64,000 nt of DNA, taken from assembly GCA_964609095.1 (NCBI GenBank), contig CAZSQN010000002.1, forward strand, positions 152,066-216,065. The letters run 5' to 3'. This DNA is from an uncultured Gammaproteobacteria bacterium (GTDB taxonomy: Bacteria > Patescibacteriota > Patescibacteriia > CAZSQN01). Position numbers and translations under genes: made by a program. Each line of letters begins with the position of its first letter. The first letter of the stretch is position 1. The notes below the pieces were generated by a model that saw nothing but the letters and a program-made list of their open reading frames with translations, had not been told where the DNA came from and did no database searches. Of the stretch, positions 3,537-39,287 are shown piece by piece.

Positions 3537-3550
3537 AAATTGTTTAATCC

Positions 3551-3594
3551 AGCACATAACATAACATAATTTATGTTATGTTATGTGCTGGATT
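3551..3594. repeat. near-perfect 21-bp-arm hairpin (ccagcacataacataacataa / ttatgttatgttatgtgctgg)
   Basis: Inverted repeat seen directly. Variant of the CCCCGCACATAA unit. Overlaps the stop codon of the GT4 gene at 3581. Confidence 0.7.
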
Positions 3595-4738
3595 TAGCCC
3601 ACTCCCCAATTATATACCGGCCGCGAGATAGCCAAGAATATTTTTCCGCAATAGCCCTCCCTGCCCCGCCATAACGGCGGCGTAAATCTTCATTGTCAAG
3701 AAGAAGACGCAGAGCGCGCCCCATTGCCGCGGCGTCTCCCGCCGGAACAAGGCAAGCGGATTCGGCATTCACCACTTCGCGCACCGAAGGCAAATCAGTG
3801 GCAATCACCGGCCTGCCGCTGGCCAAGTATTCAAATAGCTTAAGCGGAGAAGTCCAGCGCAAAAAAAACGCTGAAGATGCGGGCGTTGGCATTAAAAGCG
3901 CGTCCGCGGCCGCGAGCCAGTCGGGGATTTCCGCGTATGGCCTCTGGCCGGCAAAAATAACAGCGCCGGACGGAAGCCCCAAATCGTTTAAATATTGTTT
4001 ATAAGCGGCTATAGCGCTCTCCGGCCCGCCGACTATGGCCAGAACAATATTTTTATTCCCATTCTTATACGCCTGCCCAAACGCTTCCAGCATCAGATAG
4101 ATGCCTTTTTCCATACCCATGGCCTCTAACCTGCCGACATACATGGCTATTTTCGCTTCAACCGGCAAAGAAAGTTTTTTCCGCGCTTCTTCTTGGCTCA
4201 AAGACGAGCTAAAACGTCTTAAGTCCGCTCCGTCGTGGGCGACAATTATTCTGGCCCCGCTCCTTAAAAACGGTTTGGCGTCTTGCGCCAAGGCGGCGGT
4301 TGTGGCGACCACTAACGATTTGGCATTAATAAATCTCAGCCATTTCCCGTAGGAAGGCAAACGGTGCAGTTCTAAGATAAACGGCTTTTGAAATAAGCTG
4401 AAAATCAAAGCCAGCCACTCGTCGCGCAGATATAAAATATCAGCGCGAGCGCGCCGCGACGCCAAAAGCGCGCCCGCGGCAAAACTTAATCCTTCAAGCG
4501 CCAAAGTAAAGATATTCGGGAAACGGCTTAAAAAATCAATGACCGGCAAGGTCTGCCACTTAAATGTCTGCTTAAAACCATAGGCGGAAAAAGGGTCGCC
4601 GCCATTTCCCCACCGTCTCGGGCTTACAAGCAAAACCTCGTGCCCCTGCTCCGCCAAGGCCGAGCACATTGACATAATTTGTATTCCATGCGCTTTTTCC
4701 GTCGGAAGCCGCGCGTTTACGGCATAAAATATTTTCAT
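3581..4738 (-). CDS. glycosyltransferase family 4
   Basis: GT4-like N-terminus MKIFYAV and C-terminal Glycos_transf_1-like region. Tool ORF prefix MRG is a repeat readthrough; real ATG at 4738 is immediately preceded by TTATGTGCGGGGT. Confidence 0.75.
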   Translation of the reverse strand: MKIFYAVNARLPTEKAHGIQIMSMCSALAEQGHEVLLVSPRRWGNGGDPFSAYGFKQTFKWQTLPVIDFLSRFPNIFTLALEGLSFAAGALLASRRARADILYLRDEWLALIFSLFQKPFILELHRLPSYGKWLRFINAKSLVVATTAALAQDAKPFLRSGARIIVAHDGADLRRFSSSLSQEEARKKLSLPVEAKIAMYVGRLEAMGMEKGIYLMLEAFGQAYKNGNKNIVLAIVGGPESAIAAYKQYLNDLGLPSGAVIFAGQRPYAEIPDWLAAADALLMPTPASSAFFLRWTSPLKLFEYLASGRPVIATDLPSVREVVNAESACLVPAGDAAAMGRALRLLLDNEDLRRRYGGAGRAIAEKYSWLSRGRYIIGEWAKSST

Positions 4739-4739: not shown

Positions 4740-4835
4740 CCCCGCACATAAATCTATTTAATAATTAAATAGATGACATTATAATTTTTTTATTTTCCCG
4801 CATCCTATTCGTACTAAATAAATTTATGTGCGGGG
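4740..4835. repeat. 96-bp intergenic cassette bounded by 12-bp inverted repeats CCCCGCACATAA...TTATGTGCGGGG, containing a TATAAT box
   Basis: Seen directly. About 80% identical to the copy at 59068-59167. On the minus strand the TAA of its 5' arm is the asnB stop codon and its 3' arm is followed by T then the ATG of the next gene. Confidence 0.75.
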
Positions 4836-6674
4836 TTTCAAATATAAATTATGCCAGACCTGAAATGTCATCAGCGCCCAGATTGTGTTCAAACCGTAAA
4901 CTCTCATTTCCTTATGGTCATCCAAGATTTTAGAAATCGCCGCAAAATCAAAATACGCGTCCGTGCCGGCAGTATATGACGGACTCAAAATTTCTCCGGC
5001 AAACTGATATAATTCCCCTCTTATCCATTTGGCGGCGGGAGAAAAAAATCCCCGTTTTTTTTCTTTAGCCACGAAATCCGGAATCAGGCCGCCGATGGCT
5101 TGACGAAATATCTTTTTACCCAATATCCGCGATTCCAGCTTGTATTTTGACGGGATAGAAAAAGCAAGCTCCGCGAGCCGATAGTCCAATATCGGCACGC
5201 GCTCTTCAAGCGCGAAAGCCATAGACAGCTTGTCTGAACGGATAAGCGACTCGTCAGTAAGCCATGTTTTCACATCCGCCATCATCATCTGATTGGTAAA
5301 ATCTTTTTCTATGTTTTCAAAATATGGAGCAAATGCCCGCGCGGCGGCTTCGGGGCGGCTAACGTCTTTCTTTAAAAATTTTCCGACTTTTTCTTCTTTC
5401 TGCGCCATAAAAGAAAAAAACCTGTCCAAGCCCTGTTTTGCCTGAACCTTTTCCAAAAACGTCGTTCTGCCGGTAATGTTTCCCAAAAATGAAAGCAGCA
5501 TGGGATTAAGAAGCGGCGCCGGCAAAGACCCGATCTTATCAATGACCGAATTATAATAATATCTGTCATAGCCGCCGAAAAGCTCGTCGCCGCCGTCTCC
5601 GCCTAAAACAACATCAACCTTCTTTTTGGCAAACTGCGAAAGCAGATAGGTGGCCGGCTGAATGTGGTTGCTTACCGGCTCATCCATATGATAAATAACT
5701 TTTTCAAAACAATCCCGCGTGCCATTCGCGGAAATTTTTAAAGAATAGTGGTCGGTTCCAAAATGTTTGGCGATTCTCTCCGCCAGATAAAAATCGGCGT
5801 TGTATCTTTCCTCCTGAATGTCAATATCAAAGCCGACCGAAAATGTTTTAATCTTTCCGGGAATTATTTCCGCCATCGCGCCCAACACCGCGGTAGAATC
5901 AATGCCGCCGGAAAGAAAAACGCCCAAAGGACGGTCCGAAATCAGCTGTCTTTTAACCGCGTCCCTGAAAAGAGCAAGAATCTGCTCTTGCGCCTCGCCT
6001 CTCCCAAGCTCTTTTCCGCTTTTTAACTCCCAATACGGAGCCGTCTTCAAATCCCCATTTTTCAAAACCGCGAAATTGCCGGCGGGCAATTTAAAAATAT
6101 TTTTCCAGATAGTTTTGGGCGCGGGAACGTAAAGAAAGCGGAAATAAACGTTTAAGGAATCCAAATCAATTTCTCGCGGCACATTATGGCGAAGAATGGC
6201 TTTTATCTCGGAAGCAAAAATAAATTTCTTTCCGTCCCAGTAATAATAAAGCGGCTTTACTCCCAGATGGTCGCGCGCCAAAAAAAGCTCATTTCGTTCT
6301 TTGTCCCAAACGGCAAACGCGAAAATGCCGTTTAATTTTTTTATTGATTCTTTGCCCCACTCCGCGTAAGCGGCGAGCAATGCTTCCGTATCGCTTTTGG
6401 ATTTAAACGAATGTCCTTTTTTCTCTAATTCCTCTTTCAATTCCTGAAAATTGTAAATCTCGCCGTTAAAAGTGATAGTATATCGCCCGTTCGCGTAACT
6501 CATCGGCTGATGCCCCAGAGGCGAGAGGTCAATAATGGAAAGACGGTTATGACCCAAAGAAATTCCGGGCGCGCTAAAAGTTCCGGCGTCGTCAGGCCCG
6601 CGGTGATTTTGAATCGCAATCATCGCTTTTAATTTTTCTTCATCCTGAAAATTAAATCCGGAAATTCCACACAT
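4824..6674 (-). CDS. asnB: asparagine synthase (glutamine-hydrolysing), AsnB/WbpS-type amidotransferase
   Basis: MCGI N-terminal Cys nucleophile and SGGIDS PP-loop. Confidence 0.85.
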   Translation of the reverse strand: MCGISGFNFQDEEKLKAMIAIQNHRGPDDAGTFSAPGISLGHNRLSIIDLSPLGHQPMSYANGRYTITFNGEIYNFQELKEELEKKGHSFKSKSDTEALLAAYAEWGKESIKKLNGIFAFAVWDKERNELFLARDHLGVKPLYYYWDGKKFIFASEIKAILRHNVPREIDLDSLNVYFRFLYVPAPKTIWKNIFKLPAGNFAVLKNGDLKTAPYWELKSGKELGRGEAQEQILALFRDAVKRQLISDRPLGVFLSGGIDSTAVLGAMAEIIPGKIKTFSVGFDIDIQEERYNADFYLAERIAKHFGTDHYSLKISANGTRDCFEKVIYHMDEPVSNHIQPATYLLSQFAKKKVDVVLGGDGGDELFGGYDRYYYNSVIDKIGSLPAPLLNPMLLSFLGNITGRTTFLEKVQAKQGLDRFFSFMAQKEEKVGKFLKKDVSRPEAAARAFAPYFENIEKDFTNQMMMADVKTWLTDESLIRSDKLSMAFALEERVPILDYRLAELAFSIPSKYKLESRILGKKIFRQAIGGLIPDFVAKEKKRGFFSPAAKWIRGELYQFAGEILSPSYTAGTDAYFDFAAISKILDDHKEMRVYGLNTIWALMTFQVWHNLYLKPRT

Positions 6675-14811: not shown

Positions 14812-15950
14812 AAATATCTGTCGTAGAGCGAACTTACCTGTTCGGTGATTTTATCCCATGAGAAATTTTTAATTCTTTCCTTGGCGGCGGCAACCATCCG
14901 TTTGGCAAGTTCGTCATCGCTCCATATTCTTTTGATTGCTTCGGCAATGGCCTGCGGGTCTTTGGGCGGAACAAGCAACCCGGTCACTTCGTTTTCCACC
15001 GCGTCAGGTATGCCCCCGACATAAGTGCCGACTACCGGCACTCCCAAGGCCTGCGCTTCCAAAAAAACAATCCCCAACCCTTCGGCCAGCGACGGACCGA
15101 CAAAAATTTCCGCGGTCGCGGCTTCGCTCATGGCGCGGCCGTGCGGCAGGGCTCCGCGGAAAAAGACGCATCCTCCAAGATCAAGCGCGCGGACAAGATT
15201 TCTAAGTTTTTCTTCTTCGGCGCCGGAACCGACAATTACCAGATGCGCGTCTCCAAAATGCGCGCGAATTATGGGCATGGCCGAAATCAGATACTCATGG
15301 CCTTTTTCCCAGCTAAGCCGCCCCACGCTGACGATTCTTTTTGGAATTTTGGCGCGCTGATGCGAGAGAAGCGGCTGTATTTCCGTTAAATCCACCCCGT
15401 TGGGGATTTTGGAAATCCTGCTTTCGCTAACGCCAAGACGCGCCGCGCGCTCCTTCAGATAACGGCTGATGGCGGTTATGTGCGAGGGAGAAATATGAAT
15501 CAATTTCCATAAAAAATACGGGATTTTTCTTTGTTTTTTCGCGTCGTCCAAATCTCCGCTCTGCAGCGTCAATATTGTCGGGGTTTTCCACCGGAGAAAC
15601 CGATAAAACATCAAGGCCATGCCGGCATAGGATTCCATAATGGCGTGCGCCAAATCCGGCTTTAATGAAAACGCCGCCACGGGCGCCAAAAACGGAAACA
15701 GCCACTTATCAAATTTCACGCCCAGGCCAAGGCGCACTAATTTTCCGTGACGCAAATTTTCCCGTTTGGGCATCTTGCGGGAATTGCGGGTGGTAAAAAG
15801 CACAAAGTGGTAGCGCTCTCCGAGACGGTCTACCACTTCTCTTACAAATCTTTCCGCTCCGCTCTCCCACGGCATATAAAATGCCGAGAAGATGGCGATA
15901 GTTGGTTTATCGGAGGTATGCTTCATATGTCTTTTTGAGTCCTTCTTCAA
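14808..15950 (-). CDS. glycosyltransferase family 4
   Basis: Typical GT4 body (GxGxxxE / Glycos_transf_1 region). Start may be the internal Met at 15926. Confidence 0.7.
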   Translation of the reverse strand: MKKDSKRHMKHTSDKPTIAIFSAFYMPWESGAERFVREVVDRLGERYHFVLFTTRNSRKMPKRENLRHGKLVRLGLGVKFDKWLFPFLAPVAAFSLKPDLAHAIMESYAGMALMFYRFLRWKTPTILTLQSGDLDDAKKQRKIPYFLWKLIHISPSHITAISRYLKERAARLGVSESRISKIPNGVDLTEIQPLLSHQRAKIPKRIVSVGRLSWEKGHEYLISAMPIIRAHFGDAHLVIVGSGAEEEKLRNLVRALDLGGCVFFRGALPHGRAMSEAATAEIFVGPSLAEGLGIVFLEAQALGVPVVGTYVGGIPDAVENEVTGLLVPPKDPQAIAEAIKRIWSDDELAKRMVAAAKERIKNFSWDKITEQVSSLYDRYL

Positions 15951-16851
15951 GCCCGACGCGCGGCGTAAAGTCCAGACATTGCCGCATCTTGCTTATCTGC
16001 GGCCAACGATGCCAGACCTCAATTTTCCGCGGCGGCAAAAATTCCGGTTTTATACTTTTCCCGGAAATGGAAATTATTTTTTCAGCCAGTTCCAGGACGG
16101 TTGTCGGCCGTCCGGTGCCGATATTTATCACCTGCCCGTTGGCTTCATCGCGAGTGAGCGCGCAAATCGCGGCTTCCACATTATCATCAACAAAGACAAA
16201 ATCCCTTGTCTGGGTTCCGTCGCCAAAAATTGTCGGAGATTTTCCTTCCAAAACCTGATTGATGAATACGCCGACCACAAAACCGTACTCGCTTCCCTCC
16301 TGCCGCGGCCCGTAAACGTTAAAAAAGCGCAAAGCAACGGTTGGAAGTTTTCTTTTTTCCCAATACGCCCGCAGAAGATTTTCTCCCGCGAGTTTTACCA
16401 CCGCGTAGGGCATTTTGGCGTTAACGGCGCCGTCTTCGCGTTCGGGCAGCTCAAGAGGGTTGCCGTATACTTCGGATGAGGAAGAAAAAACTATTTTTTT
16501 AACTCCCGCGCGCTCGGAGCACTCCAGAATGTTGTTTATACCGGCAATGTCAGCCATCACCTCAAGCGGCGATTCCAAGGTTCTTTTTACTCCCACGATG
16601 GCCGCGTAATGAAACACAAAATCTATCTTGAACTGGGAAAATGCCGCGGCAAGCTCCGTCTTGTTATTGGCGTCTCCTTTAATAAAATAAAAATTGCCGT
16701 TTGTTTTAAGATGTTCAATGTTTGATTCGCGGCCGGTGGAAAGATTGTCAAAACAAACAACAGCCGAGCCCATTTTAAGCAGACGTTCGCACAAATGAGA
16801 GCCGATAAACCCGGCTCCGCCGGTAACTAATGAGATTTTTCCTTCAAGCAT
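15907..16851 (-). CDS. NAD-dependent nucleotide-sugar epimerase/dehydratase (SDR)
   Basis: [19 protein letters not shown]; YxxxK SDR architecture. Tool ORF prefix MCWIKQIMCGVCPAHNLNYVRG is in-frame translation of the upstream REP cluster; real ATG at 16851. Confidence 0.8.
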   Translation of the reverse strand: MLEGKISLVTGGAGFIGSHLCERLLKMGSAVVCFDNLSTGRESNIEHLKTNGNFYFIKGDANNKTELAAAFSQFKIDFVFHYAAIVGVKRTLESPLEVMADIAGINNILECSERAGVKKIVFSSSSEVYGNPLELPEREDGAVNAKMPYAVVKLAGENLLRAYWEKRKLPTVALRFFNVYGPRQEGSEYGFVVGVFINQVLEGKSPTIFGDGTQTRDFVFVDDNVEAAICALTRDEANGQVINIGTGRPTTVLELAEKIISISGKSIKPEFLPPRKIEVWHRWPQISKMRQCLDFTPRVGLEEGLKKTYEAYLR

Positions 16852-16852
16852 A

Positions 16853-17176
16853 CCCCGCACATAATTTAGGTTATGTGCGGGGCATACCCCGCACATAATT
16901 TGCTTAATCCAACACATAATTCAGATTATATGTTGAATCTGATAATTAGATAATATACCTCCCCGCATTCTTACAAACAAACTGAATTATGTGCGGGGTG
17001 ATAAACTTCCTCTCATTATGGGCGCAAAAGTACGAATTGTCAATGCGGTTAAAATGTCTTATAGTTAAACGAACAGTATGCCCCGCACATAACTTTGCCT
17101 ATTATAGCGTGGTGCGGGAAAGTAAAAAGATTAAAATATTGTTTGTCTGATTTTATTAAGTAAATTATGTGCGGGG
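16853..17176. repeat. divergent-promoter intergenic region packed with six copies of the 12-mer unit CCCCGCACATAA/TTATGTGCGGGG
   Basis: Copies at 16853 (C form), 16871 (G form), 16887 (C), 16987 (G), 17081 (C), 17165 (G). 16853-16882 is a perfect 12-bp-stem hairpin. 17081-17176 is a 96-bp cassette resembling the 4740-4835 element. Both flanking start codons abut a unit. Confidence 0.75.
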
Positions 17177-17177
17177 T

Positions 17178-18344
17178 ATGAATAAGCCCAAAATACTTTA
17201 TCTCATTACTCAAGCCGAATGGGGCGGCGCCCAACGTTATGTTTTTGATTTGGCAATCGCTTTTAAAACGGAATTTGACGTGTCTATCGCGGCTGGAGCC
17301 GAAAATGGCGACGATTCGCTTTTAAGGCGATCCCGAGACAACGGAATACGCACAGTTGAAATTTCAAACCTGCATAGAGAGATACGGCCAATTGAAGATA
17401 TCCGCGCGCTTTTAAAAATACGTTCACTGCTTAAAGAACTTAAGCCGCAAATACTTCATCTAAACAGCGCCAAAGCAGCCGTCCTCGGAACTTTGGCCGC
17501 GGCTTGGACAGGAATAAAAATAGTTTATACGGTGCACGGCTGGTCGTTTCTCGAACCGCTTTCAATATGGAAAAAGGCGGCCTATCTTATTTTTGAAAAA
17601 ATATCTTGTTCGTTTGGCCGCGAGGCCACCATACTTTTAAGCCAAAAAGAATTGGCGGCCGCCAAAAAATACGGATTGAATTGCGGCGAAACAGAAATTA
17701 TTTTTCATGGAATTGCTCCGCCGGCATTTTTGGACAAGGAAACCGCCTTGCAAAAATTAAACGAACATCTGCAAAAACCTCTGCCCAAAAATGCCCTTTT
17801 AATAGGCACCGTCGCCAACCTTTATGAAACAAAAGATATCGCCAACCTCATCGAGGCGTTAAAAGGCGTAAATGAAAATTTTATTTCAATCGTCATCGGA
17901 ACAGGGCCTTTATTTGGCCGCCTTAAAACATTGATTGAAGAGGAAAAACTTTCAAACCGCGTTATTTTGGCCGGAAAAATCATACCGGCAACGGAGATAT
18001 TAAAATCCTTTGATATTTTTGTCCTGCCATCGGCCAAAGAGGGTTTCCCCTACGCGATTTTGGAAGCCATGGCCGCCGGACTGCCTATTGCCGCCACTTC
18101 CGTCGGAGCCATTCCGGAAATGATTGAAGATAAAAAAAGCGGCCTTATAGCGCCGCCTAAAAACCCGGGCGCGCTTAAAACCGCGATTGAATCGCTTTTG
18201 AAAGATGAAAATCTTCGTTCCTTGCTCGGCCAGACAGCCGCAAATGAATTCAAAATCCGTTTTTCAAAAGATAAAATGGTTCAAGCGACAAAAGAAATCT
18301 ATTTAAAGTTTCTTTCTGATTCGTCAAAAAGCAGGGAAATCTGA
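17178..18344 (+). CDS. glycosyltransferase family 4
   Basis: MNKPKILYLITQAEWGGAQRY GT4 N-terminus. Tool start (GTG at 17169) lies inside the repeat; ATG at 17178 preferred. Confidence 0.8.
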   Translation: MNKPKILYLITQAEWGGAQRYVFDLAIAFKTEFDVSIAAGAENGDDSLLRRSRDNGIRTVEISNLHREIRPIEDIRALLKIRSLLKELKPQILHLNSAKAAVLGTLAAAWTGIKIVYTVHGWSFLEPLSIWKKAAYLIFEKISCSFGREATILLSQKELAAAKKYGLNCGETEIIFHGIAPPAFLDKETALQKLNEHLQKPLPKNALLIGTVANLYETKDIANLIEALKGVNENFISIVIGTGPLFGRLKTLIEEEKLSNRVILAGKIIPATEILKSFDIFVLPSAKEGFPYAILEAMAAGLPIAATSVGAIPEMIEDKKSGLIAPPKNPGALKTAIESLLKDENLRSLLGQTAANEFKIRFSKDKMVQATKEIYLKFLSDSSKSREI

Positions 18345-20734
18345 GCCATAAATGTCGGATTCTTGCGGACATTTCTATCGGGATATGCGCGATAAATCGC
18401 GGCTATAATCTCCCGCGCCTTTTCCCGCTCGCCGCGATTTAAAAATATTCTGCTTAGCAAAACAGAAGTGTATGGTTCAGATTTAACCTGCGCCGCGTAA
18501 CGTTCCACCCACGATGGATCTTTTACCGGATTGCCGGTTTTGTCCGCCAAATTCATAAACAAAACCATTTGCTCGTAAATAACCGGAGTAAAACCGCCGT
18601 CTAAAGATTTTTTCATTGCCTTATAAGCGGCCGAATCGTCGCCTTTAGCGGCCAATCCGATTCCTTCCCACCACAATGCTTCAACCTCGTCATTGTTTTG
18701 CCTTGCCAACGAAATATAAAGCTCCATCTCCTGCGGCATCCAGAGCGCAAACGGCGAACCGTAATCGTAACGGAGCGCGCTTCGCATTTCCTTATACGCG
18801 TCTTTGGGAAAATTCGCCCTGGCAAGCGCTTCGCCGTAGCGCCAGCGCGCTTCGGGCACGCGCTCATATAATTCCACCGCCTGCCTGCCCAGCTCTACTG
18901 CGTTTTCCGTCTGGCCTTTAATCAAGTAAAGCCGCATCAAAGTAAAATAAATCTGCTGCCGCTTGGGAGAAAGCTCTTTGGCTTTAAGCAAGGACTCTTC
19001 CGCTTCAAGATAATATGAGGGACCCAGAACCGAGGCCATCAACATGCTCCAGCGCGCCAAATTCATCATATAATAAGTATCGTTCTGGTGCGCCGCCGAG
19101 CTTTTTTTATACTCGCCATAAACATCATTAATCATCTTTTCGGCGTCGCCGCGGCTCAAATTTGACGCACCCTGGAGAATGGCCACGACCAATTTGGAAA
19201 GTTCGTCGCGGCTTTCCTGCCGGTAAGGGCTTGGTTTTTGAAGCGCGTCATAAATTTTGTCGTAAGAGGCCCGCGGATTTTGCGCAAAATTAACGCCGGC
19301 GGAGATGGTCGCGGCCGAAACGGAAAAAGGAATAACATTTATAAAAATTGACAAAATCAGCAGACCCAAGGCGCCGCCCATGGCCATGGCAATGCGCGCG
19401 GGCGGCTCCAGCCGCAAAAAAGCCGGCTGCTTTTCTGATGCCTTTTTTGGAGCCGTATCTTGCGCCGCCAGAATATGGGCATAACCCAAAAAAGCATACA
19501 GCGTAATCCAAATGCCCAGGGTGTCAAAAGCGAAAAGATTCTGCACGAAATAACCGAGCAGAGCCGCGAGCATTACGGCGCTAGGCCATTTTTGCTCCGG
19601 ACGCCGGCTTTCGCGGAAAAATTCCCGCGCGGCAAAAACAAATACGGATAAATAAGCAGCCAGTCCCAAAATGCCGCTGTCATTAAGCTTGTCAATTAAA
19701 AAATTGTGAGAATGGTCCTGCCAGGTCTCGTAAGAGCCGTAAGCGTAAAATTTCGGATCATAATATCTGTTAAATCCGTAATAATAATTTTCCGGCCCCC
19801 AGCCCAAAATCGGCCTGTGCGCCCAAGCGCGAAGCCCGACTTTCCAATTCATCAGCCGCGTCTGGGCGGTATTGGTGCGCAGATTTAACTCGGCCACCTG
19901 ATGCAAAAATTTGCTGTTCTGCGCCAAGCGCGTGCCGGAAATTAAAAAAACAAAAGCGACTAAAACTAAGGGCAGCGCGGCCGCCGCCAAAGAAACGCGG
20001 GGGCGCGCCTTAAAATTTTTTGCCGCCCGGAAAAGAAAGATGAAAACAAGAGAAACGACGATGGCAATAAGCGCGCCTCTGGTCTTGGCCCAGGAAAAAG
20101 CGACGAATTCAAGTCCAAGCAATCCCAATAACGCCAATTTCAAACCGATTTTTTTCTCGCCGGCGATATACCACGCGAGCAGATACATCTGCATCAAAAG
20201 ATAAGCGGAAAGGTAAATGGCGTTTCCAAAAGTGCTGTAAATGCGCCCGCCTTTGGTTTCGTGAAGAAACGAGGGGGAAAAATATTGAATAAATCCTATA
20301 AGCGTCACCGCGGCTCCGGCAACAATGGCATAAGCAAATAATTTCCGCCATTCATCCTTTGTTCTGTAAATGCTTACGGCCATAAGCGCGAAAAGCGCCA
20401 CATGCGCGTACATAAAAAGCCCCATCATCCGCTCATGATTGCCCCAAAAACTGCGCAAAGGGTCAATGGAAAAAATAGTGGCGAACGTCTCTATAATCAA
20501 AAGAGCGATGATGGAAATAAGAATTTTGGTTTTCCGCGGACGATAAGCCGGGGCCGTCAGCATCAGATACAAATACGGAATCGCCAGCAGTTCCACTAAA
20601 AATCTGAAGGCCAGAGATTTCGGGAAAATAAAAGGAAATATCGTTGCCGAGGTATAGATAAGCGGAACAAAAAATACCAGCCCCACGCCAACGCGCAAAA
20701 ATTTAACTATGATTGTTTCTATTTTATTATTCAT
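18299..20734 (-). CDS. Wzy_C (O-antigen ligase/O-oligosaccharyltransferase-like) polytopic membrane protein with C-terminal TPR repeats, paralog 1
   Basis: About 12 TM helices, LGWGPENYYYGF and WQDHSHNFL motifs of the Wzy_C family, C-terminal TPR-like repeats. Its 3' end overlaps the convergent GT4 gene by 46 nt. Confidence 0.7.
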   Translation of the reverse strand: MNNKIETIIVKFLRVGVGLVFFVPLIYTSATIFPFIFPKSLAFRFLVELLAIPYLYLMLTAPAYRPRKTKILISIIALLIIETFATIFSIDPLRSFWGNHERMMGLFMYAHVALFALMAVSIYRTKDEWRKLFAYAIVAGAAVTLIGFIQYFSPSFLHETKGGRIYSTFGNAIYLSAYLLMQMYLLAWYIAGEKKIGLKLALLGLLGLEFVAFSWAKTRGALIAIVVSLVFIFLFRAAKNFKARPRVSLAAAALPLVLVAFVFLISGTRLAQNSKFLHQVAELNLRTNTAQTRLMNWKVGLRAWAHRPILGWGPENYYYGFNRYYDPKFYAYGSYETWQDHSHNFLIDKLNDSGILGLAAYLSVFVFAAREFFRESRRPEQKWPSAVMLAALLGYFVQNLFAFDTLGIWITLYAFLGYAHILAAQDTAPKKASEKQPAFLRLEPPARIAMAMGGALGLLILSIFINVIPFSVSAATISAGVNFAQNPRASYDKIYDALQKPSPYRQESRDELSKLVVAILQGASNLSRGDAEKMINDVYGEYKKSSAAHQNDTYYMMNLARWSMLMASVLGPSYYLEAEESLLKAKELSPKRQQIYFTLMRLYLIKGQTENAVELGRQAVELYERVPEARWRYGEALARANFPKDAYKEMRSALRYDYGSPFALWMPQEMELYISLARQNNDEVEALWWEGIGLAAKGDDSAAYKAMKKSLDGGFTPVIYEQMVLFMNLADKTGNPVKDPSWVERYAAQVKSEPYTSVLLSRIFLNRGEREKAREIIAAIYRAYPDRNVRKNPTFMAQISLLFDESERNFK

Positions 20735-23015
20735 TGTTGTTGTTTAATTTCTCATTTTCGCGGCGGCTGATTTCCTCCAAAAAAGCTTGCGCTTCGGCCG
20801 CGTAACTTGAATCCAAGCGAACCGCTTCCGCCGCGGCTTTCCGCGCCTTGCCAAATTCGCCAAGTTCAAGCTCAACTACGGCAAGCTGGCCAAAATAATT
20901 TACATCGTCATCTTCCAGCTTGATGTCGGCCAAAAGCAAAACGCGCAAAAGCTCATAATCGCGCTCTTGTGCCGCCAGATCAGCCGCGAACTTTCTTTCT
21001 TTGGAAAGAAGGGGCAGATAATTAAATTTGTCTTTATCAACCAAAACTCCGTCAATCAAATCGTAATCAATGGTTTTTAACTCTTTGCCCAAAAGCGCTT
21101 GCCGCCATTCGCGAAGCGCTTTGCCGTTTTCCCCATTATAAGCATAAGCAATGCCCAGCCGCCAGCGCGCTTGGCCGATGTCGGGATTAAAACTTATTGC
21201 TTTCTCCAACAGCGATACGGCTTCGCCTATTTGCCGTTTTAGATATTTTACCGACGCCAGCTGGAAAAAAAGCGCTTGCCGCCGAGGCGAGTATGGCTCG
21301 GCCGCCGCGTAGGCCTCTTCGGCGGCGTTAAGGTCCTCCGGACCGAAAAGGATCGCGCGCTCAAGATACAAATTTCCCAATTCATAGCGATAGGCAAAGT
21401 CGTTTGGCGCCTCATTGATGTTTTGTTTCATTTCCAAAATAGCGCGGTCCAATAAAACCCTGGCGTCTTCTTTAGTCATGGAATCCGCGTCTTCAAACAC
21501 TTTGTTGGCCAGCCGCAAACGAAAATCGCGGATTAAAGAGGGCTTAAAACCGCTTGCTTGCTCAAACAAAACCAGCCCTTCTCGCGCCGCAAGAGGCGGC
21601 AGCAGTTCAAAAGCAAACATTCTCTTGGCGGCTCGCGCGTTCGCGAGCGTGGGCGCAATGGCCAAAACGGCGAGAAGGCAGCCCAAAATCAAACCCGGAT
21701 AATAGCCCCCTTTTGGTTCTGCTTGTTTTTCCGTCTCTCCGCCGGCTGGCAGAGCATACGCGGAAGAAATATACGCCAAAACAAACATCAAATAAATCAA
21801 GCTGGTCGGCGAATCAAAAGCGAAAAAATTCTGCGCGGCATAAGCGGCAAGCAAAGAGGCCAGAATCGCGCCCTCATTTTTGCTTTGATTTTTATTCTTC
21901 ACGCTTTTGATGATGGCCAAAATCGCGGCGACAAAAATGCCCAGATAGGCCAAAAATCCCAGAACGCCGCCCATAACCAGCATATCCAAATAAGTATTAT
22001 GGCTTCTGTCAGACCATGTTTCCGACACGCCGAATTTGAGCAGAGCCGGGTCATATTCTTTGTCAAAAGCGTAATCAAAATTTTCCCAGCCCCAGCCCAA
22101 AGCTGGCCGCTCGCCAAAAGCGCGAAGCGCCGTGCCGTATATCAGCAATCTCTGATTTGAACTGGCTTCTTGCAGGCCAAGATTTGTAAAACGTCTGACC
22201 GTATTGATTGTCGTTTGGTTGCCGGCGGCGTAAAGAATAATAACTAACATCAGCATTGCCGCGACAATAGAACCGATTTTTAAAACCGCGGACTTGCGTC
22301 GCTCTTTCGGCTGCAAGATTGTGAAAGAAACAAGAGTGAAAAGCGCGCCGGCAAGAAATCCAAAAAACGCGCCGCGGCTCTGGGCAAAAAGCAAAGCGAC
22401 AAAAATCAAAATGGAGGAAGCCAAAAACAAAAAACGGTTTCTTTTCCGGGCGGATAAAAATAACTTGGCTGAAATAAAAAGCGGGAAAAGAAGATAACCG
22501 CCGTAAAATATGGGATTGCCCAAAGTTCCCCCGACGCGGCTGCCGCCTGTTCGCGCGTATTCCCCTATGCCCAACATGGCCATTAACACTCCGACGGCAA
22601 CAGCTAATAACAAAAGCTGTTTTTTTGCCGCCACAGAACGGCTAAAAGCGAAAAAAAAGATAAAATACGCGGCCAGATAATGAAAAAAATTAAAAAGCCC
22701 CAGAACGCGGTTGTCGCTTCCCCAAAAACTCTGATAAAAATCAATTCCCGTTATCGCCGTAATCGCCAAAACAGCGACAAAAATCAATAAAGCCGCCGCG
22801 ACGGGATTATTTCTTATGATTCGCTCGCGCCGGCGCCAAAAAAATACGGCTCCGAGCGCGGGCAAAAGCAGGGCGATAATAATCTGAATAATCACGGCCT
22901 TGCCCAAAACATCGGGATAAAGAACCCTTGGCAAGACATAAAACGGCGCGAGCAAAAGCAAACACGCTCCGACAAACGTTATTTTTTCTAAAATCTGATA
23001 TTTGGATTTTAACAT
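20727..23015 (-). CDS. Wzy_C + TPR membrane protein, paralog 2
   Basis: LGWGWENFDYAF, WSDRSHNTYL; same architecture as neighbours. Confidence 0.7.
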   Translation of the reverse strand: MLKSKYQILEKITFVGACLLLLAPFYVLPRVLYPDVLGKAVIIQIIIALLLPALGAVFFWRRRERIIRNNPVAAALLIFVAVLAITAITGIDFYQSFWGSDNRVLGLFNFFHYLAAYFIFFFAFSRSVAAKKQLLLLAVAVGVLMAMLGIGEYARTGGSRVGGTLGNPIFYGGYLLFPLFISAKLFLSARKRNRFLFLASSILIFVALLFAQSRGAFFGFLAGALFTLVSFTILQPKERRKSAVLKIGSIVAAMLMLVIILYAAGNQTTINTVRRFTNLGLQEASSNQRLLIYGTALRAFGERPALGWGWENFDYAFDKEYDPALLKFGVSETWSDRSHNTYLDMLVMGGVLGFLAYLGIFVAAILAIIKSVKNKNQSKNEGAILASLLAAYAAQNFFAFDSPTSLIYLMFVLAYISSAYALPAGGETEKQAEPKGGYYPGLILGCLLAVLAIAPTLANARAAKRMFAFELLPPLAAREGLVLFEQASGFKPSLIRDFRLRLANKVFEDADSMTKEDARVLLDRAILEMKQNINEAPNDFAYRYELGNLYLERAILFGPEDLNAAEEAYAAAEPYSPRRQALFFQLASVKYLKRQIGEAVSLLEKAISFNPDIGQARWRLGIAYAYNGENGKALREWRQALLGKELKTIDYDLIDGVLVDKDKFNYLPLLSKERKFAADLAAQERDYELLRVLLLADIKLEDDDVNYFGQLAVVELELGEFGKARKAAAEAVRLDSSYAAEAQAFLEEISRRENEKLNNNNE

Positions 23016-23021
23016 TTGGAT

Positions 23022-25256
23022 TTATTTGTTCTCCATCGTCTTCAAAAACAATTCCGCCTCGTCTCTGTAAGACGGGTCCAATTTTGCCGCCAAAAGCGCC
23101 TCTTCGCGCGCGTCCTCCCAGCGTCCGATTTCTTTGTAAACAACGGCTAATTGGGCGTGGATGTCGGCCCGCTCCGGCGCCGCCTCCAGCGCGGCTTCCA
23201 AATAAAGCTGGACTCCGAAATAATTTTTTTCTCTGGCCATTAAGGTGGCGAGAATCAAACGATTTTCAACCTCGTGCGGAATAAATTTTTTCCTTGCCGC
23301 TTCCAAAAGCTCTCTGTCCGCGCTAACAATATCTCCCGTTTCGCGTAGCATTGCCCCGTAATACCAATGCGCTTCCCCCACCTCCGGCTCCAATTCCACC
23401 ATCTTGCGGTAAATCTCCTTGGCGTCTGGAAGCCGCCCTTGCAACACCCGCAATTTAGCCAGGCCGAACCATGTTTGCTGGCGCTTGGGCGAAAGGGCAA
23501 TAGCCGCCTCAAATTCTTTCTCCGCTTCATCATTAAAAGACGGGTCATAGTTAAGCGCTTCAGTGTATAATCTGGCCAGCAGATAGTGATAATAAACGTG
23601 CAACGGGTGGCGGGCGATGTTTGCCTCAAGCGCGCGCCGGGCAAAATCAAAATAATCCTGAAACTGTTCCGGCGGTATTGATTTTTTGATTAAAACGCCC
23701 ACCACAATCTGCGCCGCCTGCGTCCGCGTTTCCTCCTTATATGGAGTCGGCAATTTTAACGCTTCGCGAAAAAGAGGAATGCTGCGAACATCGCTGTAAT
23801 CAGTCGCGTAAACAGTTGATTGCAGCATGGCGTCGGAGGCGACCATCGGCTGCCAGTTTAATTTGTAAATCATAATTCCAGACGCCAAAAGCAATATGGG
23901 GAGAAGAAATTTGGAGTTTTGAGTTTTGAGTTTTGAGTTTGTTTCGGATTTCGGGCTTCGGATTTCGGGTTTAAATTCTCCCATCTTCGAACTTCCAACT
24001 TCCGCCCTCTGGTTCACTCCGGAGAGCAAAAACAGAAACAGAAAAAATGAGGCGGGGGAATCAAAAGCAAACAGATTTTGGATAAAATACATCAGAAGCC
24101 CTATAGAAAAAATCCGGCCTGTCAAAGCGCCCCGCCAGAGCCGATAAAACGCGTAGCCCAAAAGCGTGAGATAGGAAATAAGTCCGAGAACTCCGGAATG
24201 AATCAATGTCTCCAAAACAATATTGTGCGGCCTGTCCCACCATGTTTCATAATATGAAAAGCGCAAAAGAGACGGATTGTAATACTGATTAAAGGCGATG
24301 GGAAAATTCTCCTGGCCCCAGCCCAAAAGAGGCCTCGCGGCAATGCCCTTAAGCGCGACCTGCCATCCCAAAAAACGGGTGGTAATAGTCACTTCTTTTA
24401 AGGAGGTGACGGAAAAACGCCGCAAAGCCGGAATTGACTGAAAAGAAACCGGACCTTTGCTTAAAGATAAAAACAAAGCCATTGCCAAAATAAAAACGCC
24501 GGAGGCAACCGCGGCTATTTTTAGCCGGCGCGAAATCCTTGTTAAAACAAGGGCAACAAGCGAAAATACCAAACCGGCTGCAAGAGCTATAAGCGCGCCG
24601 CGCGTCTTGGTGGCCAAAATCATAATGATAAAAAAAGCCGCGGCCAAAAAAGCAAACCATCGGCGCCATCCGCTTTTTCTAAAAGCCAAATACAAGGCAA
24701 ACGGCAGATACAGAATAAAGGCGGCGGCAAGAAAAATAGGATTACCCAAAGTGCCGGCAAGGCGAAATCCCAAATCAACGCCGAAAATAAGAATGTTCCA
24801 CAAGCGCAAAAGAGCGACAATGCCCAAGGCAATACCTCCAAGCACGGCAATAAAATACGCGCGCTCCTTCCATTTTTGCTCGCCAAAAACAGAACGCGCC
24901 ATTAAAAAAAATACAATCGCGTGCAGCTGGGTGATAAGTCCCATGCCTCTTTCTTCCGTTCCCCAAAAACTGCGCAGAGAGTCAACTCCTAATACTCCCG
25001 CCAAAACGCTCACGGCAAAATAAGCCAGTAAAAGTTTAGAGAGAGTGTCAAACTTCGGCCTGTATTCCGGCGCGCCGACTATCAAAACTATAAATAACGC
25101 CAAAAATAATTCAACCGTTGCTTGCAAAAAAACAATCTTGCCGAAAACAAACGGATAAATTGTCCAGGGGGTTACGGCAAGCGGCAGGAAAAAAATAACA
25201 AACAAAAGCCCCCAGCGCAAAATGCTCAAAATTAAATTTTGATTGGATTTTGTCAT
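23022..25256 (-). CDS. Wzy_C + TPR membrane protein, paralog 3
   Basis: LGWGQENFPIAF, WWDRPHNIVL; low-complexity linker encoded by short tandem DNA repeats around 23915-24000. Confidence 0.7.
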   Translation of the reverse strand: MTKSNQNLILSILRWGLLFVIFFLPLAVTPWTIYPFVFGKIVFLQATVELFLALFIVLIVGAPEYRPKFDTLSKLLLAYFAVSVLAGVLGVDSLRSFWGTEERGMGLITQLHAIVFFLMARSVFGEQKWKERAYFIAVLGGIALGIVALLRLWNILIFGVDLGFRLAGTLGNPIFLAAAFILYLPFALYLAFRKSGWRRWFAFLAAAFFIIMILATKTRGALIALAAGLVFSLVALVLTRISRRLKIAAVASGVFILAMALFLSLSKGPVSFQSIPALRRFSVTSLKEVTITTRFLGWQVALKGIAARPLLGWGQENFPIAFNQYYNPSLLRFSYYETWWDRPHNIVLETLIHSGVLGLISYLTLLGYAFYRLWRGALTGRIFSIGLLMYFIQNLFAFDSPASFFLFLFLLSGVNQRAEVGSSKMGEFKPEIRSPKSETNSKLKTQNSKFLLPILLLASGIMIYKLNWQPMVASDAMLQSTVYATDYSDVRSIPLFREALKLPTPYKEETRTQAAQIVVGVLIKKSIPPEQFQDYFDFARRALEANIARHPLHVYYHYLLARLYTEALNYDPSFNDEAEKEFEAAIALSPKRQQTWFGLAKLRVLQGRLPDAKEIYRKMVELEPEVGEAHWYYGAMLRETGDIVSADRELLEAARKKFIPHEVENRLILATLMAREKNYFGVQLYLEAALEAAPERADIHAQLAVVYKEIGRWEDAREEALLAAKLDPSYRDEAELFLKTMENK

Positions 25257-27494
25257 TGCCGGTTGGAAAGGTCCTCCACCGCGCCTATAAATTCTTCCAC
25301 ATCGGCGCGCCTTCCCGGATCAAGCGTAATTGCCTTAAACGCCTCGGCTCTGGCTTCGTCAAATCTGCCTACGCTGGCGTAAACCGCCGCCAGCCGCAGA
25401 TGCAGGCCCGCGTCATTTGGCTCGGCTAGAGAGAGCCGTTCCAAAATCGGAATTATTTTTTCATACTTCCCGCGCGAGGCGTAAAAATCAACCACAAAAT
25501 TAATGCGGCGGATAACGCTCGCGCGAACATCTTGAAGATTGGAAACATAATTAGTCGCCGCCGCCTTGTCAAAGGCCACTTCAGCCGCGTCATATTCTCC
25601 GGCGGCAACAAGCGCCATGCCATACATCCAATATGACTCGCCGTGCTCGGGATTGGCAAGCGACAGAGCTTTAGCGCGCGCCACCGCTTCCGCCGCATTC
25701 CCGCGAGCCAATTCCATTTGCACGCGCATAATGGCTGTTGTCTGCCTGCCGGGCGCCAGCGCTTCGGCGCGATTAAACATTTCTTCTGATTTTTGGAAAT
25801 ACGCGCCGTCAAGATATTCGCCGGCAAGAGAAAAAATCTGCGCCGAACGGTAAACAAGAGGATAAACTTGCGGATGCGCGTTGGCGGATTTCTCCAGATA
25901 AGCCGCAAACTCCGGAAGAATTGATTTGGTTACGGGAACCGGAATAACTCCGGCCGCGTCGCCTTTTAAGATATCATCGGCAAAAATCTTGGCAATCTCA
26001 TCGTGAAGCGCCGTTTGCGTCCGCAGAGCCGATAAAAAATCTTTTTTGAATTTTTCAAAATCCCGCTGTACAACGTCTTTTTCCGCGCGAATGGCGTAAT
26101 AAGAGGCCTTAACGGGCAAAATCGCTCCGGCCCAAAGGAGCCATAAAATAACAAAAAAACTTAAATACCGTCCGGCTCTTCCCAGAACAAAACCAGGTGC
26201 CGCGGCGCTTTGCTCCGAAAAAATTTGAACATCAATAAAGGCAAGCATGGCCGCAAAAAGAATAAGCGCGCCAAAAGTGTCAAAAAGAAAAAATCCCTGT
26301 CCCAAATAACCCATAAGCCCGCCGGCTAAAAGCCCGGCCTCGCTTATGGGAAGCTGGAAGCTGGAATCCGGAAGCTGGGATATTTTACGGCGGCAAATGA
26401 GCCAAATTGGAATTGCAAAAAGAGCGATAAAAGAAATAAGCCCGACAATGCCGCTACTGCCCGCGATTTCCAAAACAAGATTATGCGGCCGGTCTGACCA
26501 CGTTTCGGAATAAGAGTATTTTAACAATTCCGGCCGATAAAACCGCGAGAACATTATCTCATAATTTTCCGGTCCCCATCCCAGCAGAGGTCGCGCCTTA
26601 AATCCGTCCAGCGCGATTTGCCAGTTGATGATTCTGGTTTCGGCCGTTCCTTCGCGCAGGAGCGAGCCCAGCGCTTTTCCAGGCGCGCTCTCGCGGCCTA
26701 AACCAAAATAGATAAACAATGAAGCGGCAATAAGGACAATCGGCAAAACAACGCCGGCAATGCCTAAAATCCGCGCGAAACGCCGACGCGAAAAGATAAG
26801 CAAAATCAAACCGGTTGTGAGCGCGCCCAAAAACAGTCCCATTATGGCGCCGCGGCTTCCGGCGGCAAAAAGCGCCGCGGTTTCGGCAACAATAACAACC
26901 GTCAAAAAAATTTTAATCTTGCGGCCCCTCTCCCGAGAGAAAAGCAGGGCGGTGAAAAAAATAATTAAAACAAGATAGCCGGCAAAAAAGCTGGGATTGC
27001 CGAAAGAACCGAAAAACCAATCGCCCGAAGAGCCAAAAAGGCGCGAGCCGGCGCCGGTGAATTTTTGCGCAAAACCGATAATCGTTCCCAGGCCTCCGGA
27101 GACGGCTATCATTCGCAAAAATTGAAGCTGTTTGCCGCGGCTTAAAAGCGCCTGCCTTAAAAGCAGAAAAAACAAAAAAAGAAAAATAAAAAAAATCGTG
27201 CCGGTTCCGCGCATTTGGTCGCCCCAAAAACTTTTCTCCGGATTCTCTCCCAAAAAGCCGGTAAAAAGCCGGATTAAAATATAAGCGCCAAAAACATAAA
27301 AAACAGCCGTAATGTTTAATCTAAACCCGCTCCCGGAAAAAACAAAAACAAGAAAAGACAAACCAATGATTGTCTCAAAAATGGCTTCCTTGCCCGAGAG
27401 ATGGGGAAAAAGCACGCCCGGAGTAATAATAAGCGGCAGGAAAAATACGGCTAAAAGCGCGCCACGGATTGCTTTTTCAATTTTCTGCTGATTC
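25253..27494 (-). CDS. Wzy_C + TPR membrane protein, paralog 4
   Basis: LGWGPENYEIMF, WSDRPHNLVL. Start set at MNQQKIEK; the longer tool ORF extends into the MITE-like element. Confidence 0.7.
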
Positions 27495-27500
27495 ATAAAT

Positions 27501-27663
27501 ATAACTGATATTAGGTTTATGAAGAATTGTTTTATAAATTTAGCCAAAAATTTAGGTTTAAACTTTGCCAGTTATTTGTCATTCCCGCGAAAGCGGGAAT
27601 CTACGGGTTCAAATTCTGGATTCCCGCTTTCGCGGGAATGACATAAAAAACCCAATATCAGTT
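27501..27663. mobile_element. MITE-like 163-bp element, copy 1, 16-bp terminal inverted repeats AACTGATATTAGGTTT / AAACCCAATATCAGTT
   Basis: Seen directly. More than 95% identical to 37319-37478. Contains the palindromic core GTCATTCCCGCGAAAGCGGGAAT...ATTCCCGCTTTCGCGGGAATGAC (two GAAA/TTTC tetraloop hairpins). Lies 6 nt upstream of the start codon of the gene at 25253..27494. Confidence 0.75.
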
Positions 27664-31654: not shown

Positions 31655-31726
31655 AGCTGTTAGCTGTTAGCTTTTAGCTGTTAGAAGTTTTAAGCCCCTA
31701 AAAGCTATAAGCTACAAGCTAAAAGC
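31655..31726. repeat. tandem-heptamer hairpin, family B copy 1 (AGCTGTT/AGCTTTT arms vs AAAAGCT/ATAAGCT arms)
   Basis: agctgttagctgttagcttttagctgttag ... ctaaaagctataagctacaagctaaaagct; related copies at 38391 and 48287. Confidence 0.75.
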
Positions 31727-34072: not shown

Positions 34073-34226
34073 CCCCGCACATAACCCTGAACTCATTTAG
34101 GATTTCGCCAATTGTCATTCCCGCGAAAGCGGGAATCCACAATTGGCAAATTAATAATTTGAGCGCCTGGATTCCCGTTTACACGGGAATGACAGGCCAA
34201 AGTTTTTGTCAATTTTATGTGCGGGG
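34073..34226. repeat. REP-unit-bounded element (CCCCGCACATAA ... TTATGTGCGGGG) enclosing a copy of the ATTCCCGC palindromic core
   Basis: C form at 34073-34084, G form at 34215-34226, internal gtcattcccgcgaaagcgggaat...attcccgtttacacgggaatgac at 34114-34193. Lies between convergent genes. Confidence 0.7.
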
Positions 34227-35295: not shown

Positions 35296-35427
35296 CCCCG
35301 CACACAACTTGTTTAATCCAATCATATCACGAATGATATGCATTTAATTAACCAAGCCATGTTAATGATTTTTGTTTCTCATTAAGAAGAACATAAAATA
35401 TAAGCTATAAGCAGGTTGTGTGCGGGG
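35296..35427. repeat. REP-unit-bounded 132-bp element (variant arms CCCCGCACACAA / TTGTGTGCGGGG)
   Basis: Seen directly. Internal palindrome catatcattcgtgatatg. The 3' arm abuts the ATG of the HtrA-like gene. Confidence 0.65.
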
Positions 35428-39283: not shown

Positions 39284-39287
39284 TTAA

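Follow-up and report, generated by a model that had tools for sequence, protein, structure and literature searches.

Why should genes of unrelated function carry similar sequences of about 100 nt immediately before their start codons? The question is raised by a 64,000-nt stretch of contig CAZSQN010000002.1 (assembly GCA_964609095.1, positions 152,066 to 216,065, referred to here as the window), from an uncultured bacterium assigned by GTDB to the Patescibacteriota. A preliminary description of the window, made from the sequence alone, reported three copies of a cassette of about 97 bp, each bounded by 12-bp terminal inverted repeats (the arms), and took them to be a ready-made promoter and 5' untranslated region (UTR) module. 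The analysis described below upholds the copying of one module and points to another identity for it. It is highly probable that the cassettes are non-autonomous derivatives, resembling miniature inverted-repeat transposable elements (MITEs), which arose by internal deletion from a tiny element of the Patescibacteria, or candidate phyla radiation (CPR), that carries a gene for a GIY-YIG nuclease.

Arm-bounded elements in the window

The three copies are present at 4740-4835, 59068-59167 and 17081-17176 (copies 1, 2 and 3), and have in common the arm CCCCGCACATAA/TTATGTGCGGGG as an inverted pair, the right-hand member of which stops 1 nt short of a genuine ATG in every copy, with the downstream open reading frames (ORFs) in frame. 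Their interiors are also related: copies 1 and 2 are 79% identical (55 of 70 aligned interior positions, close to the 80% first estimated), copies 3 and 2 are 74% identical, and copies 3 and 1 are 62% identical, so that the similarity extends beyond the arms and does not reduce to independent pairs of short palindromes. The homologous interiors, the 4-nt direct repeats at the flanks and the empty sites in relatives bear out the earlier view that one module was copied or transposed, rather than having arisen by convergence. Five genuine genes (two GT4 genes and those for an epimerase, a trypsin/PDZ protein and an M50 protease) have their ATG, preceded by a T, directly after a right arm. Pfam domains of the ORFs after the three cassettes (GT4, M50, GT4) start near residue 1-20, and those of the epimerase and trypsin/PDZ ORFs do likewise.

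Allowing up to two mismatches on either strand, the arm 12-mer occurs 27 times in the window, against 6.1 ± 2.4 times in shuffled sequence, and exact convergent arm pairs 70-130 nt apart give 14 strand-matches where 0.00 are expected. The search for more copies brought up nine inverted pairs rather than three, the interiors of the other six being unrelated to those of the cassettes. The 12-nt arms are exact in seven of the nine pairs and stems reach 24 bp; those of copies 1 and 2 (21-24 bp) are longer than 12 bp through copy-specific complementary sequence. Elements of the cassette class measure 96-154 nt, contain only arm-initiated frames of 4-35 aa, and fold more stably than shuffled sequence (z -3.8 to -8.1; for copy 1, -38.3 kcal/mol and z -7.95). 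Each of the 15 exact arms of the window has a partner, and all are located at gene boundaries or between them, with no singleton within a coding region, and the 4-nt flanks form direct, not inverted, repeats at five of the nine elements (CATA three times, TATG once and TCAA once).

The cassettes are not an assembly artefact: independent assemblies of six further sequencing runs carry the regions of copies 2 and 3 with 0 mismatches, and four of their contigs break within the group of arms at 16880, as a repeat would lead one to expect. An Rfam scan of the window matched only tmRNA and tRNA-Pro, the elements corresponding to no curated RNA family, and literature matches for the arm sequences were all unrelated, namely primers and type I-E-like CRISPR repeats sharing CCCCGCACAT. 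Several familiar identities were tried and rejected: a CRISPR repeat, because the arms are inverted, not direct; a DNA uptake sequence, because the exact window arms include no singletons; and an integron attC site, because the ends were seen by inspection to lack RYYYAAC/GTTRRRY core sites and the neighbouring genes have housekeeping functions.

The arms contain short frames of their own. Joined to the left arm, the duplicated ATG on the upstream side gives the 4-codon frame ATG CCC CGC ACA TAA, while an arm-internal ATG (4751-4740 and 17165-17183) opens the 4-codon frame ATG TGC GGG GTA TGA. The TGA of the latter overlaps the downstream ATG (as ATGA) in copies 1 and 3, not in copy 2, a layout that could possibly serve termination-reinitiation. 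The arm-internal ATG was also considered as the start of an Ntn-amidotransferase gene (MCG...), and rejected, since it gives only frames of 4-35 aa in the window.

A GIY-YIG nuclease gene between the same arms

Loci in related genomes that were collected in this analysis are denoted by L and a number. Counting one genome per species, the exact arm pair occurs at 44 loci, mostly in Patescibacteria (Saccharibacteria, Paceibacterota, and Yanofsky-, Harrison-, Lipton- and Colwellbacteria), with 14 of the 44 in one metagenome-assembled genome (MAG) labelled 'Planctomycetota' and three in one labelled 'Bacteroidota' (both labels unverified); the sequences between the arms differ wholly from genome to genome. 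In L046, from a relative whose M50 protein is 74% identical to that of the window, exact arms enclose an 85-aa ORF within a 329-nt unit, which lies between a stop codon and the start codon of an NDK gene and has TATG on both sides. Exact arms of the window type surround an ORF of the same family in L023 (254 nt), L042 (255 nt) and L129 (301 nt), the last with TATG on both sides and its right arm adjoining the ATG of an epimerase gene. The enclosed ORFs match the Pfam GIY-YIG family (PF01541) above its cut-off (E 1e-11 to 1e-19), and their nearest solved structures are the UPF0213 proteins 1zg2 (E 1.2e-10) and 1ywl (3.2e-6), followed by SLX1 (4e-4 to 1e-2).

A metagenome profile scan with an alignment of the four proteins confirmed at least 522 relatives among the 600 matches listed, from which 80 loci were kept; in the resulting set of 84 GIY-YIG loci, conservation was evaluated over 83 proteins, and arms and duplications were counted over 61 elements. 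The proteins (74-86 aa) belong to the UPF0213/SLX1-like branch, and the intact elements, whose terminal inverted repeats are perfect, span 250-330 bp, mostly 280-320 nt across relatives. A near-perfect inverted repeat (score 12 or higher), which opens 15-60 nt ahead of the ORF and closes 10-140 nt beyond it, flanks 68 of the 84 loci, against 0 of 84 with the downstream sequence shuffled (maximum score 10). The arms follow the consensus CCCC-N-CAC..., and positions 4-12 each show three or four types of base pair with 60-61 of the 61 elements still paired, a pattern of covariation in which the paired fractions are inflated because the loci were selected for having an inverted repeat. Direct repeats of exactly 4 nt, the commonest duplication length, flank 17 of the 61 elements (about 2% in the permuted control), and those of at least 3 nt flank 25 (about 5%). 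Residues Y3, Y5, Y16, H30, E50, R61 and E62 are 100% conserved among the 83 homologues and R26 is 98% conserved; with the catalytic core invariant or nearly so, the ORFs appear to be under selection.

The elements are not restricted to protein-coding surroundings. Rfam places them inside RNase P RNA (L087, L062, L049 and L027), inside 16S rRNA (L115) and beside tRNAs (L065, L085 and L126), the one at the P12 position of the L027 RNase P RNA being an ORF-less arm element. A group I intron-encoded GIY-YIG homing endonuclease was rejected as an identity, since Rfam finds no intron at the elements and matches with NCBIfam TIGR01453 reach 19-25 bits where the cut-off is 56. Sites in RNase P RNA are reused across genomes by different arm variants, at P3 (L027, L049 and L093) and at P12 (L027 and L087), just before GAGGAAAGTCC and just before GGTAAGGGTGAAA (L027:2480-3238), which suggests either homing or old insertions with arm co-evolution. 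At L009:6364-6483 and L030:3956-4076 a complete tRNA gene lies between exact arms that are lengthened by additional complementary bases, so that its leader and trailer would pair; this may reflect either capture of a tRNA by the element ends or use of the arms as a processing stem. In a sub-family with arms CCCCTCAC... (L052, L055, L110, L114, L119 and L116), the elements appear to be inserted near tRNA 5' ends with duplications of 7-8 nt, for example CCTATAG (the tRNA being read from the flanking sequence by inspection), and the terminal GGGG of the element seems to rebuild the tRNA 5' end GGGGCCTATAG.... A second conserved module, TGCTCAATTTTATAAC-(small hairpin)-ATAAAATTGGCATG, comes after the right arm in several CPR genomes (L006, L015/L020, L033, L041, L036, L035, L005, L008, L024, L017 and L023). 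Judged by N-terminal sequence, the genes after it are mostly ribosomal-protein genes, some of them internal to the large ribosomal-protein operon, together with those for MreB, PilC, SecY and GlmM; this module may be another inserted element or part of a composite unit.

The enclosed gene bears on a comparison with repetitive extragenic palindromic (REP) sequences and their paired form, REPINs, mobilised by a REP-associated tyrosine transposase (RAYT) of the IS200/IS605-like kind, or with uptake-signal-like pairs that form terminators. The repeats are indeed short, palindromic, extragenic and GC-rich at the stem ends, bare hairpins with a terminator-like T-run occur (61740-61773; L048:1068-1095), and the 12-mer recurs in many genomes. 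The gene between the arms, though, is GIY-YIG and not Y1 in the four exact-arm cases and in 68 of the 84 family members (no search for RAYT genes was made), direct repeats flank the elements, and the pairing of all 15 exact window arms at or between gene boundaries is at odds with the coding-region singletons of an uptake signal; such an origin is therefore very improbable.

In L046, L129 and the four window copies with a readable orientation, the ORF or its remnant points in the same direction as the downstream gene, suggesting an asymmetric target or selection on orientation. This constancy also speaks against an invertible promoter (inverton), in which a recombinase would flip a promoter upstream of surface-polysaccharide genes. 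Inverted repeats bracketing an AT-rich segment of about 75 nt upstream of glycosyltransferase and epimerase genes are what such a switch would look like; the six independent assemblies nevertheless show a single orientation, no recombinase is associated, and elements occur in RNA genes as well, so that we give an inverton almost no credence.

Cassettes as probable deletion derivatives

When aligned to the intact element of L129, all three cassettes consist of the left arm and the last 85 nt or so, with the middle of the ORF gone; they thus retain both arms and the last 60-85 nt or so of the nuclease gene. The interior of copy 3 gives local alignment z-scores of 10.4 against L129 and 9.6 against L046, and by blastn matches the latter at 22 of 23 positions (E 6.5e-6), while the interior of copy 2 gives a z-score of 5.5 against the 3' end of the L129 ORF. 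The ORF-less element at 35296, by its interior, aligns instead with the 5' end of L046, including the ORF start (z 4.1). At the codon level, the cassette core TGCGGGAAAATAAAAA corresponds to codons for GLRRLKE, and the following ATTATAATG to GGTTAAAATATGG, with codons for RLKYG, so that the 'core' and 'TATAAT' of the preliminary description would be decayed codons for ...GLRRLKERLKYG... of the nuclease. Translations of the cassettes gave no significant score with a hidden Markov model of the 83 GIY-YIG proteins, because the remnants are too short and decayed, and the homology rests on the DNA alignment.

Filled and empty insertion sites

Comparison with relatives gives three sites both with and without an element. 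At the start of the M50 gene, the window reads ...TTATG, then the element, then TATGCCTTTT, while L045, L046 and L048 are element-free and read ...TTTATGCCTTT. At the start of the GT4 gene at 17178, the window reads TATAGT-taaacgaacag-TATG, then the element, then TATGAAT, and the empty site of L140 reads TATAGT-tagataac-TATGGAC, with the -10-like box kept upstream of the insert. At the start of the NDK gene, L046 is filled (AAAAATATG, the intact element, then TATGGCC), and the window (AAAAATATGGCT) and L045 are empty. All three comparisons fit insertion exactly at TATG with duplication of these four nucleotides, which therefore leaves a start codon intact beside the right arm. Elsewhere, L140 has an arm element of 96 nt, with CATA on either side, at the matching epimerase start (compare the 16887 element of the window), and the 63110 element fills the exact gap between the NDK TAG stop (63235) and the conserved TTGACA-17-TACAAT promoter of the next gene, a junction at which L045 has a different short repeat. 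The elements share several features with MITEs: they are small and ORF-less, have inverted ends, target duplications and empty sites, and share their ends with a longer element.

Promoter and RNA-hairpin interpretations

The idea of a portable promoter and 5'-UTR module, in which a -10 box and an upstream A-rich tract of the cassette would drive the gene after the right arm, draws on the presence of TATAAT or TAAAAT at the same position in all three copies and on the constant orientation of the interior relative to the downstream gene. The sequence upstream of copy 1 is coding (asnB), and a promoter nearby would be of use there; some MITEs, such as Correia elements, are moreover known to create promoters. 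Yet the motif is homologous to the RLKYG codons of the nuclease gene, and in gene-sense orientation no -35 box lies at 16-18 nt spacing from it. In a scan with the sigma-70 consensus, the only match in copies 1 and 2, TTAATA-16-TATAAT, faces away from the downstream gene, copy 3 has no match, and matches are no more frequent than in shuffled sequence (about one). Good matches in the region 16800-17250 lie outside the inserts, TTGTCA-17-TATAGT on the plus strand (17037-17065) and TTGACA-17-CATAAT on the minus strand (17043-17015), and the former contains the TATAGT box that the window shares with the empty site of L140, upstream of the insert. Finally, a promoter would make no sense at several other places where these arms are found: within RNase P RNA, on both sides of a tRNA gene and directly after stop codons. 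No feature of the sequence requires promoter activity; the promoter label is thus probably wrong, and we regard a portable promoter as unlikely.

Host selection for a regulatory RNA hairpin that controls translation or mRNA processing, whether by RNase III cleavage to a near-leaderless mRNA or by sequestering the start, would account for the very stable folds, for arms far better conserved than interiors, and for right arms that adjoin the ATG in five window genes; the -10-like boxes 6-12 nt before many ATGs, suggesting leaderless mRNAs, are also in keeping with it. Recognition by the element's own nuclease would explain the conservation of the arms equally well, however, the downstream genes are functionally unrelated (GT4, M50, epimerase and protease), and their orthologues in relatives manage without the element, which makes a host-selected hairpin distinctly unlikely.

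The boxes themselves (TGATATAAT, TATAAC, TATATT or TATAGT, 6-12 nt before the ATG and with no Shine-Dalgarno sequence) are found at many genes of the window, for example 57977-58420, 37547-37993, 4824-6674, 53784-54383 and 17178-18344, and other genes have a clear AAGGAG. The window therefore seems to contain a mix of leaderless (or short-leader) and Shine-Dalgarno-led mRNAs.

A tentative mechanism and the points against it

If the cassettes are MITE-like derivatives of the GIY-YIG element, the nuclease would mobilise the ORF-less copies in trans. It would act on the element ends, possibly cutting at the base of a hairpin or cruciform formed by the inverted ends, a branched or hairpin DNA substrate being suggested by its kinship with SLX1, and a staggered cut of the target would produce the 4-nt duplication. 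Since pairing spans the whole element, end nucleotides included, a transcribed copy may loop out of any RNA so that the sequences on either side meet, which would explain how an insert is tolerated between promoter and start codon, in the gap from a stop codon to the following gene, and within the helices of RNase P RNA and rRNA. The elements in 16800-17250 are predicted to be transcribed as 5' UTR, and, in a genome where intergenic sequence is scarce, leaderless or short-leader mRNAs may be what allows insertion at the TATG of a start codon. Terminator function is possible for some bare hairpins with a T-run: a GC-rich hairpin and T-run can be seen by eye at 61740-61773, which looks like an intrinsic terminator, and at L048:1068-1095, and a terminator scan of the three cassettes found none.

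Several observations weigh against this account. The interior of copy 1, compared with L129 and L046 alone, gives non-significant z-scores of 0.1-1.2, and this copy is tied to the nuclease ORF because it is 79% identical to copy 2. The interiors of the elements at 16887, 34073 and 63110 contain no detectable ORF remnant, and tblastn found no intact GIY-YIG element in the window, the autonomous partner being seen in related genomes only. Direct repeats are absent from four of the nine window elements and from 24 of the 61 ORF-bearing ones, and the inverted-repeat and covariation counts were made on loci picked because they had an inverted repeat, which inflates the paired fractions. The insertion or excision polymorphism that the preliminary description proposed to look for appears as filled and empty sites between more distant relatives, and none is seen among near-identical populations (six independent assemblies). 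No GIY-YIG enzyme is known to act as a transposase in prokaryotes, and the nuclease gene could be a passenger that invaded pre-existing palindromic elements.

A cassette is, then, an ordinary kind of object, a MITE, and it is the parent family that may be a new kind of prokaryotic transposon. As a tentative proposal, somewhat short of an even chance, the parents would form an unrecognised transposon class, the sole protein of which, a UPF0213/SLX1-like nuclease of about 80 aa, acts on its own hairpin or cruciform ends and makes 4-nt duplications, with self-folding allowing the element to settle in rRNA, RNase P RNA, tRNA 5' ends and start codons of genome-reduced CPR bacteria and yet leave the host alive, and with the cassettes as its MITEs. 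The open literature (subscription journals lying outside the search) yielded no prokaryotic GIY-YIG element with inverted ends and target duplications, and no mobility of UPF0213.

Coordinates and other repeats of the window

The elements of the window and the host promoter region between two of them are collected in Table 1. In the variant hairpin at 3548-3592, the candidate ATG of the next gene (3557) lies inside the other arm, and the arm variant CCCAGCACATAA of this hairpin also flanks a GIY-YIG ORF in L059.

Table 1. Arm-bounded elements and associated features, in window coordinates (strand: + or -; a dot where none is assigned)
Feature	Coordinates	Strand	Size and structure	Flanking direct repeat	Neighbouring genes
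Cassette copy 1	4740-4835	-	96 nt, ORF-less: left arm, probable decayed 3' end of GIY-YIG ORF, right arm		TAA inside arm is the stop of asparagine synthase gene 4824-6674; right arm adjoins ATG (4738-4736) of GT4 gene 3581-4738
Cassette copy 2	59068-59167	-	100 nt	CATA (59064-59067 and 59168-59171)	Right arm adjoins ATG (59066-59064) of M50 protease gene 58428-59066
Cassette copy 3	17081-17176	+	96 nt	TATG (17077-17080 and 17177-17180)	Right arm adjoins ATG (17178) of GT4 gene 17178-18344
Bare arm hairpin	16853-16882	-	30 nt	CATA, both sides	Adjoins ATG (16851-16849) of epimerase gene 15907-16851
ORF-less arm element	16887-16998	-	112 nt; no ORF remnant detected		
ORF-less arm element	35296-35427	-	132 nt; arm variant CCCCGCACACAA (CACACAA); retains remnant of GIY-YIG ORF 5' end	CATA, both sides	Adjoins ATG (35294-35292) of trypsin/PDZ gene 34227-35294
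Arm element	34073-34226	.	154 nt; interior filled by a copy of the second repeat family TGTCATTCCCGCGAAAGCGGGAATC	TCAA, both sides	Begins right after TGA stop of gene 34227-35294
Arm element	63110-63234	.	125 nt; fold z -8.1		
Bare arm hairpin	61740-61773	-	34 nt, then CTTTTCTTTTTT		Downstream of gene 61790-63019
Variant hairpin TCCAGCACATAA...TTATGTGCTGGA	3548-3592	-			TAA is the stop of GT4 gene 3581-4738
Host divergent promoter region, outside elements	17015-17065	.	In 82-nt spacer between elements		

Other repeats accompany the arm-bounded elements. A second palindromic family, TGTCATTCCCGCGAAAGCGGGAATC ... GATTCCCGCTTTCGCGGGAATGACA, lies within repeat units of about 143 nt (D1), with copies at 27572-27648, 34111-34195 (nested in the element at 34073-34226), 37387-37459 and 61609-61687 and with copies about 79% identical in the 'Planctomycetota'-labelled MAG loci L034 and L043; its ATTCCC-N8-GGGAAT recalls the neisserial dRS3 repeat. 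Short AT-rich imperfect tandem repeats (AGCTATAAGCT..., TAGGGTTTAGCG..., CATAATTCTTGA...) reach start codons or follow stops at 31669-31727, 38391-38449, 48301-48359, 39011-39043 and 39282-39363 and upstream of 6855 and 8042, and relatives have other repeats at the same junctions (GAAATTAGAAATT in L045 and L046, TAGGCTC in L045). Two 137-nt stretches that are 99% identical (D2; 53609-53745 and 56081-56217) contain the terminator-like hairpin AAAACCCCTCCGATGGACATCGGAGGGGT downstream of two different genes. The region 18299-27547 holds four tandem paralogous genes (744-811 aa) sharing repeated DNA segments (D3, D10, D13 and D14), the first of which (18299-20734) has a Wzy_C domain; the paralogues adjoin the glycosyltransferase cluster.

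Comparison with known systems

The nearest functional analogue is the Correia/NEMIS family of Neisseria, MITEs of 100-155 bp with terminal inverted repeats and a short target duplication, which are co-transcribed with their neighbours, form a hairpin cut by RNase III and sometimes supply promoter elements. The cassettes are similarly small and ORF-less, with inverted ends, a short duplication and several copies per genome, and lie at gene boundaries with a long hairpin within transcripts. They differ from Correia/NEMIS in that their parent can be identified and has a GIY-YIG nuclease in place of a DDE transposase, that 4 nt are duplicated (TATG, TTGA and similar) instead of TA, often including a start codon, and that the arms are common to many CPR lineages while the interiors differ.

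The intervening sequences (IVSs) of 23S rRNA in Salmonella, Leptospira and Coxiella are hairpin inserts in rRNA helices that are excised by RNase III, and some carry a small ORF of the S23p family. Like these, the elements described here are self-complementary inserts that extend an RNA helix, can hold one small ORF and are tolerated in essential structural RNAs; unlike them, the ORF is GIY-YIG rather than S23p, and many sites lie outside rRNA and show target duplications. GIY-YIG homing endonuclease genes (I-TevI type in group I introns, and the free-standing Seg and Mob genes of phage T4) likewise place a GIY-YIG catalytic domain in a selfish element, and the reuse of RNase P sites across genomes could reflect homing; the protein considered here, however, is about 80 aa without a DNA-binding extension, and the elements have inverted ends, duplications and non-homologous sites.

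REP/REPIN-RAYT systems resemble the present family in their extragenic palindromes, in halves that evolve in correlation and in copies presumably mobilised in trans by a repeat-flanked single-copy gene. They differ in the enzyme (HUH Y1 rather than GIY-YIG), in the target duplications found here, and in that the arms are not themselves palindromic REP units. Among proteins of solved structure, the best sequence matches are UPF0213 (YhbQ-like) and SLX1. The latter cleaves DNA at branches and stem-loops, an activity in keeping with hairpin ends on the element, and we know of no mobile-element role described for UPF0213.

GIY-YIG ORFs in non-intron insertions within rRNA genes of CPR bacteria were reported by Tsurumaki et al. 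2024 (PMC11270868). These insertions involve the same host group and protein family, and L115, in 16S rRNA, is such a case. The available text of that paper has no occurrence of inverted repeats or hairpins, and its passages turned up no duplications, ORF-less derivatives, or insertions at start codons, tRNAs or RNase P, none of which was specifically searched for.

Significance

Annotated as promoters, such cassettes would lead to mis-annotation of regulation in CPR genomes, while mobile-element debris explains both the upstream sequence shared by unrelated genes and the assembly breaks found there. Their location also illustrates how selfish elements can persist in very compact CPR genomes, by insertion at gene boundaries and in structured RNAs, with the start codon or helix regenerated. 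Known prokaryotic transposases are, to our knowledge, DDE, HUH, serine, tyrosine or Cas1 enzymes; if the proposal for the parent family is true, these would be joined by a further class, GIY-YIG elements with inverted ends and target duplications, and the widespread UPF0213 family would gain a function. An element of about 300 bp with one 80-aa protein is small enough for direct testing, and perhaps for use as a tool.

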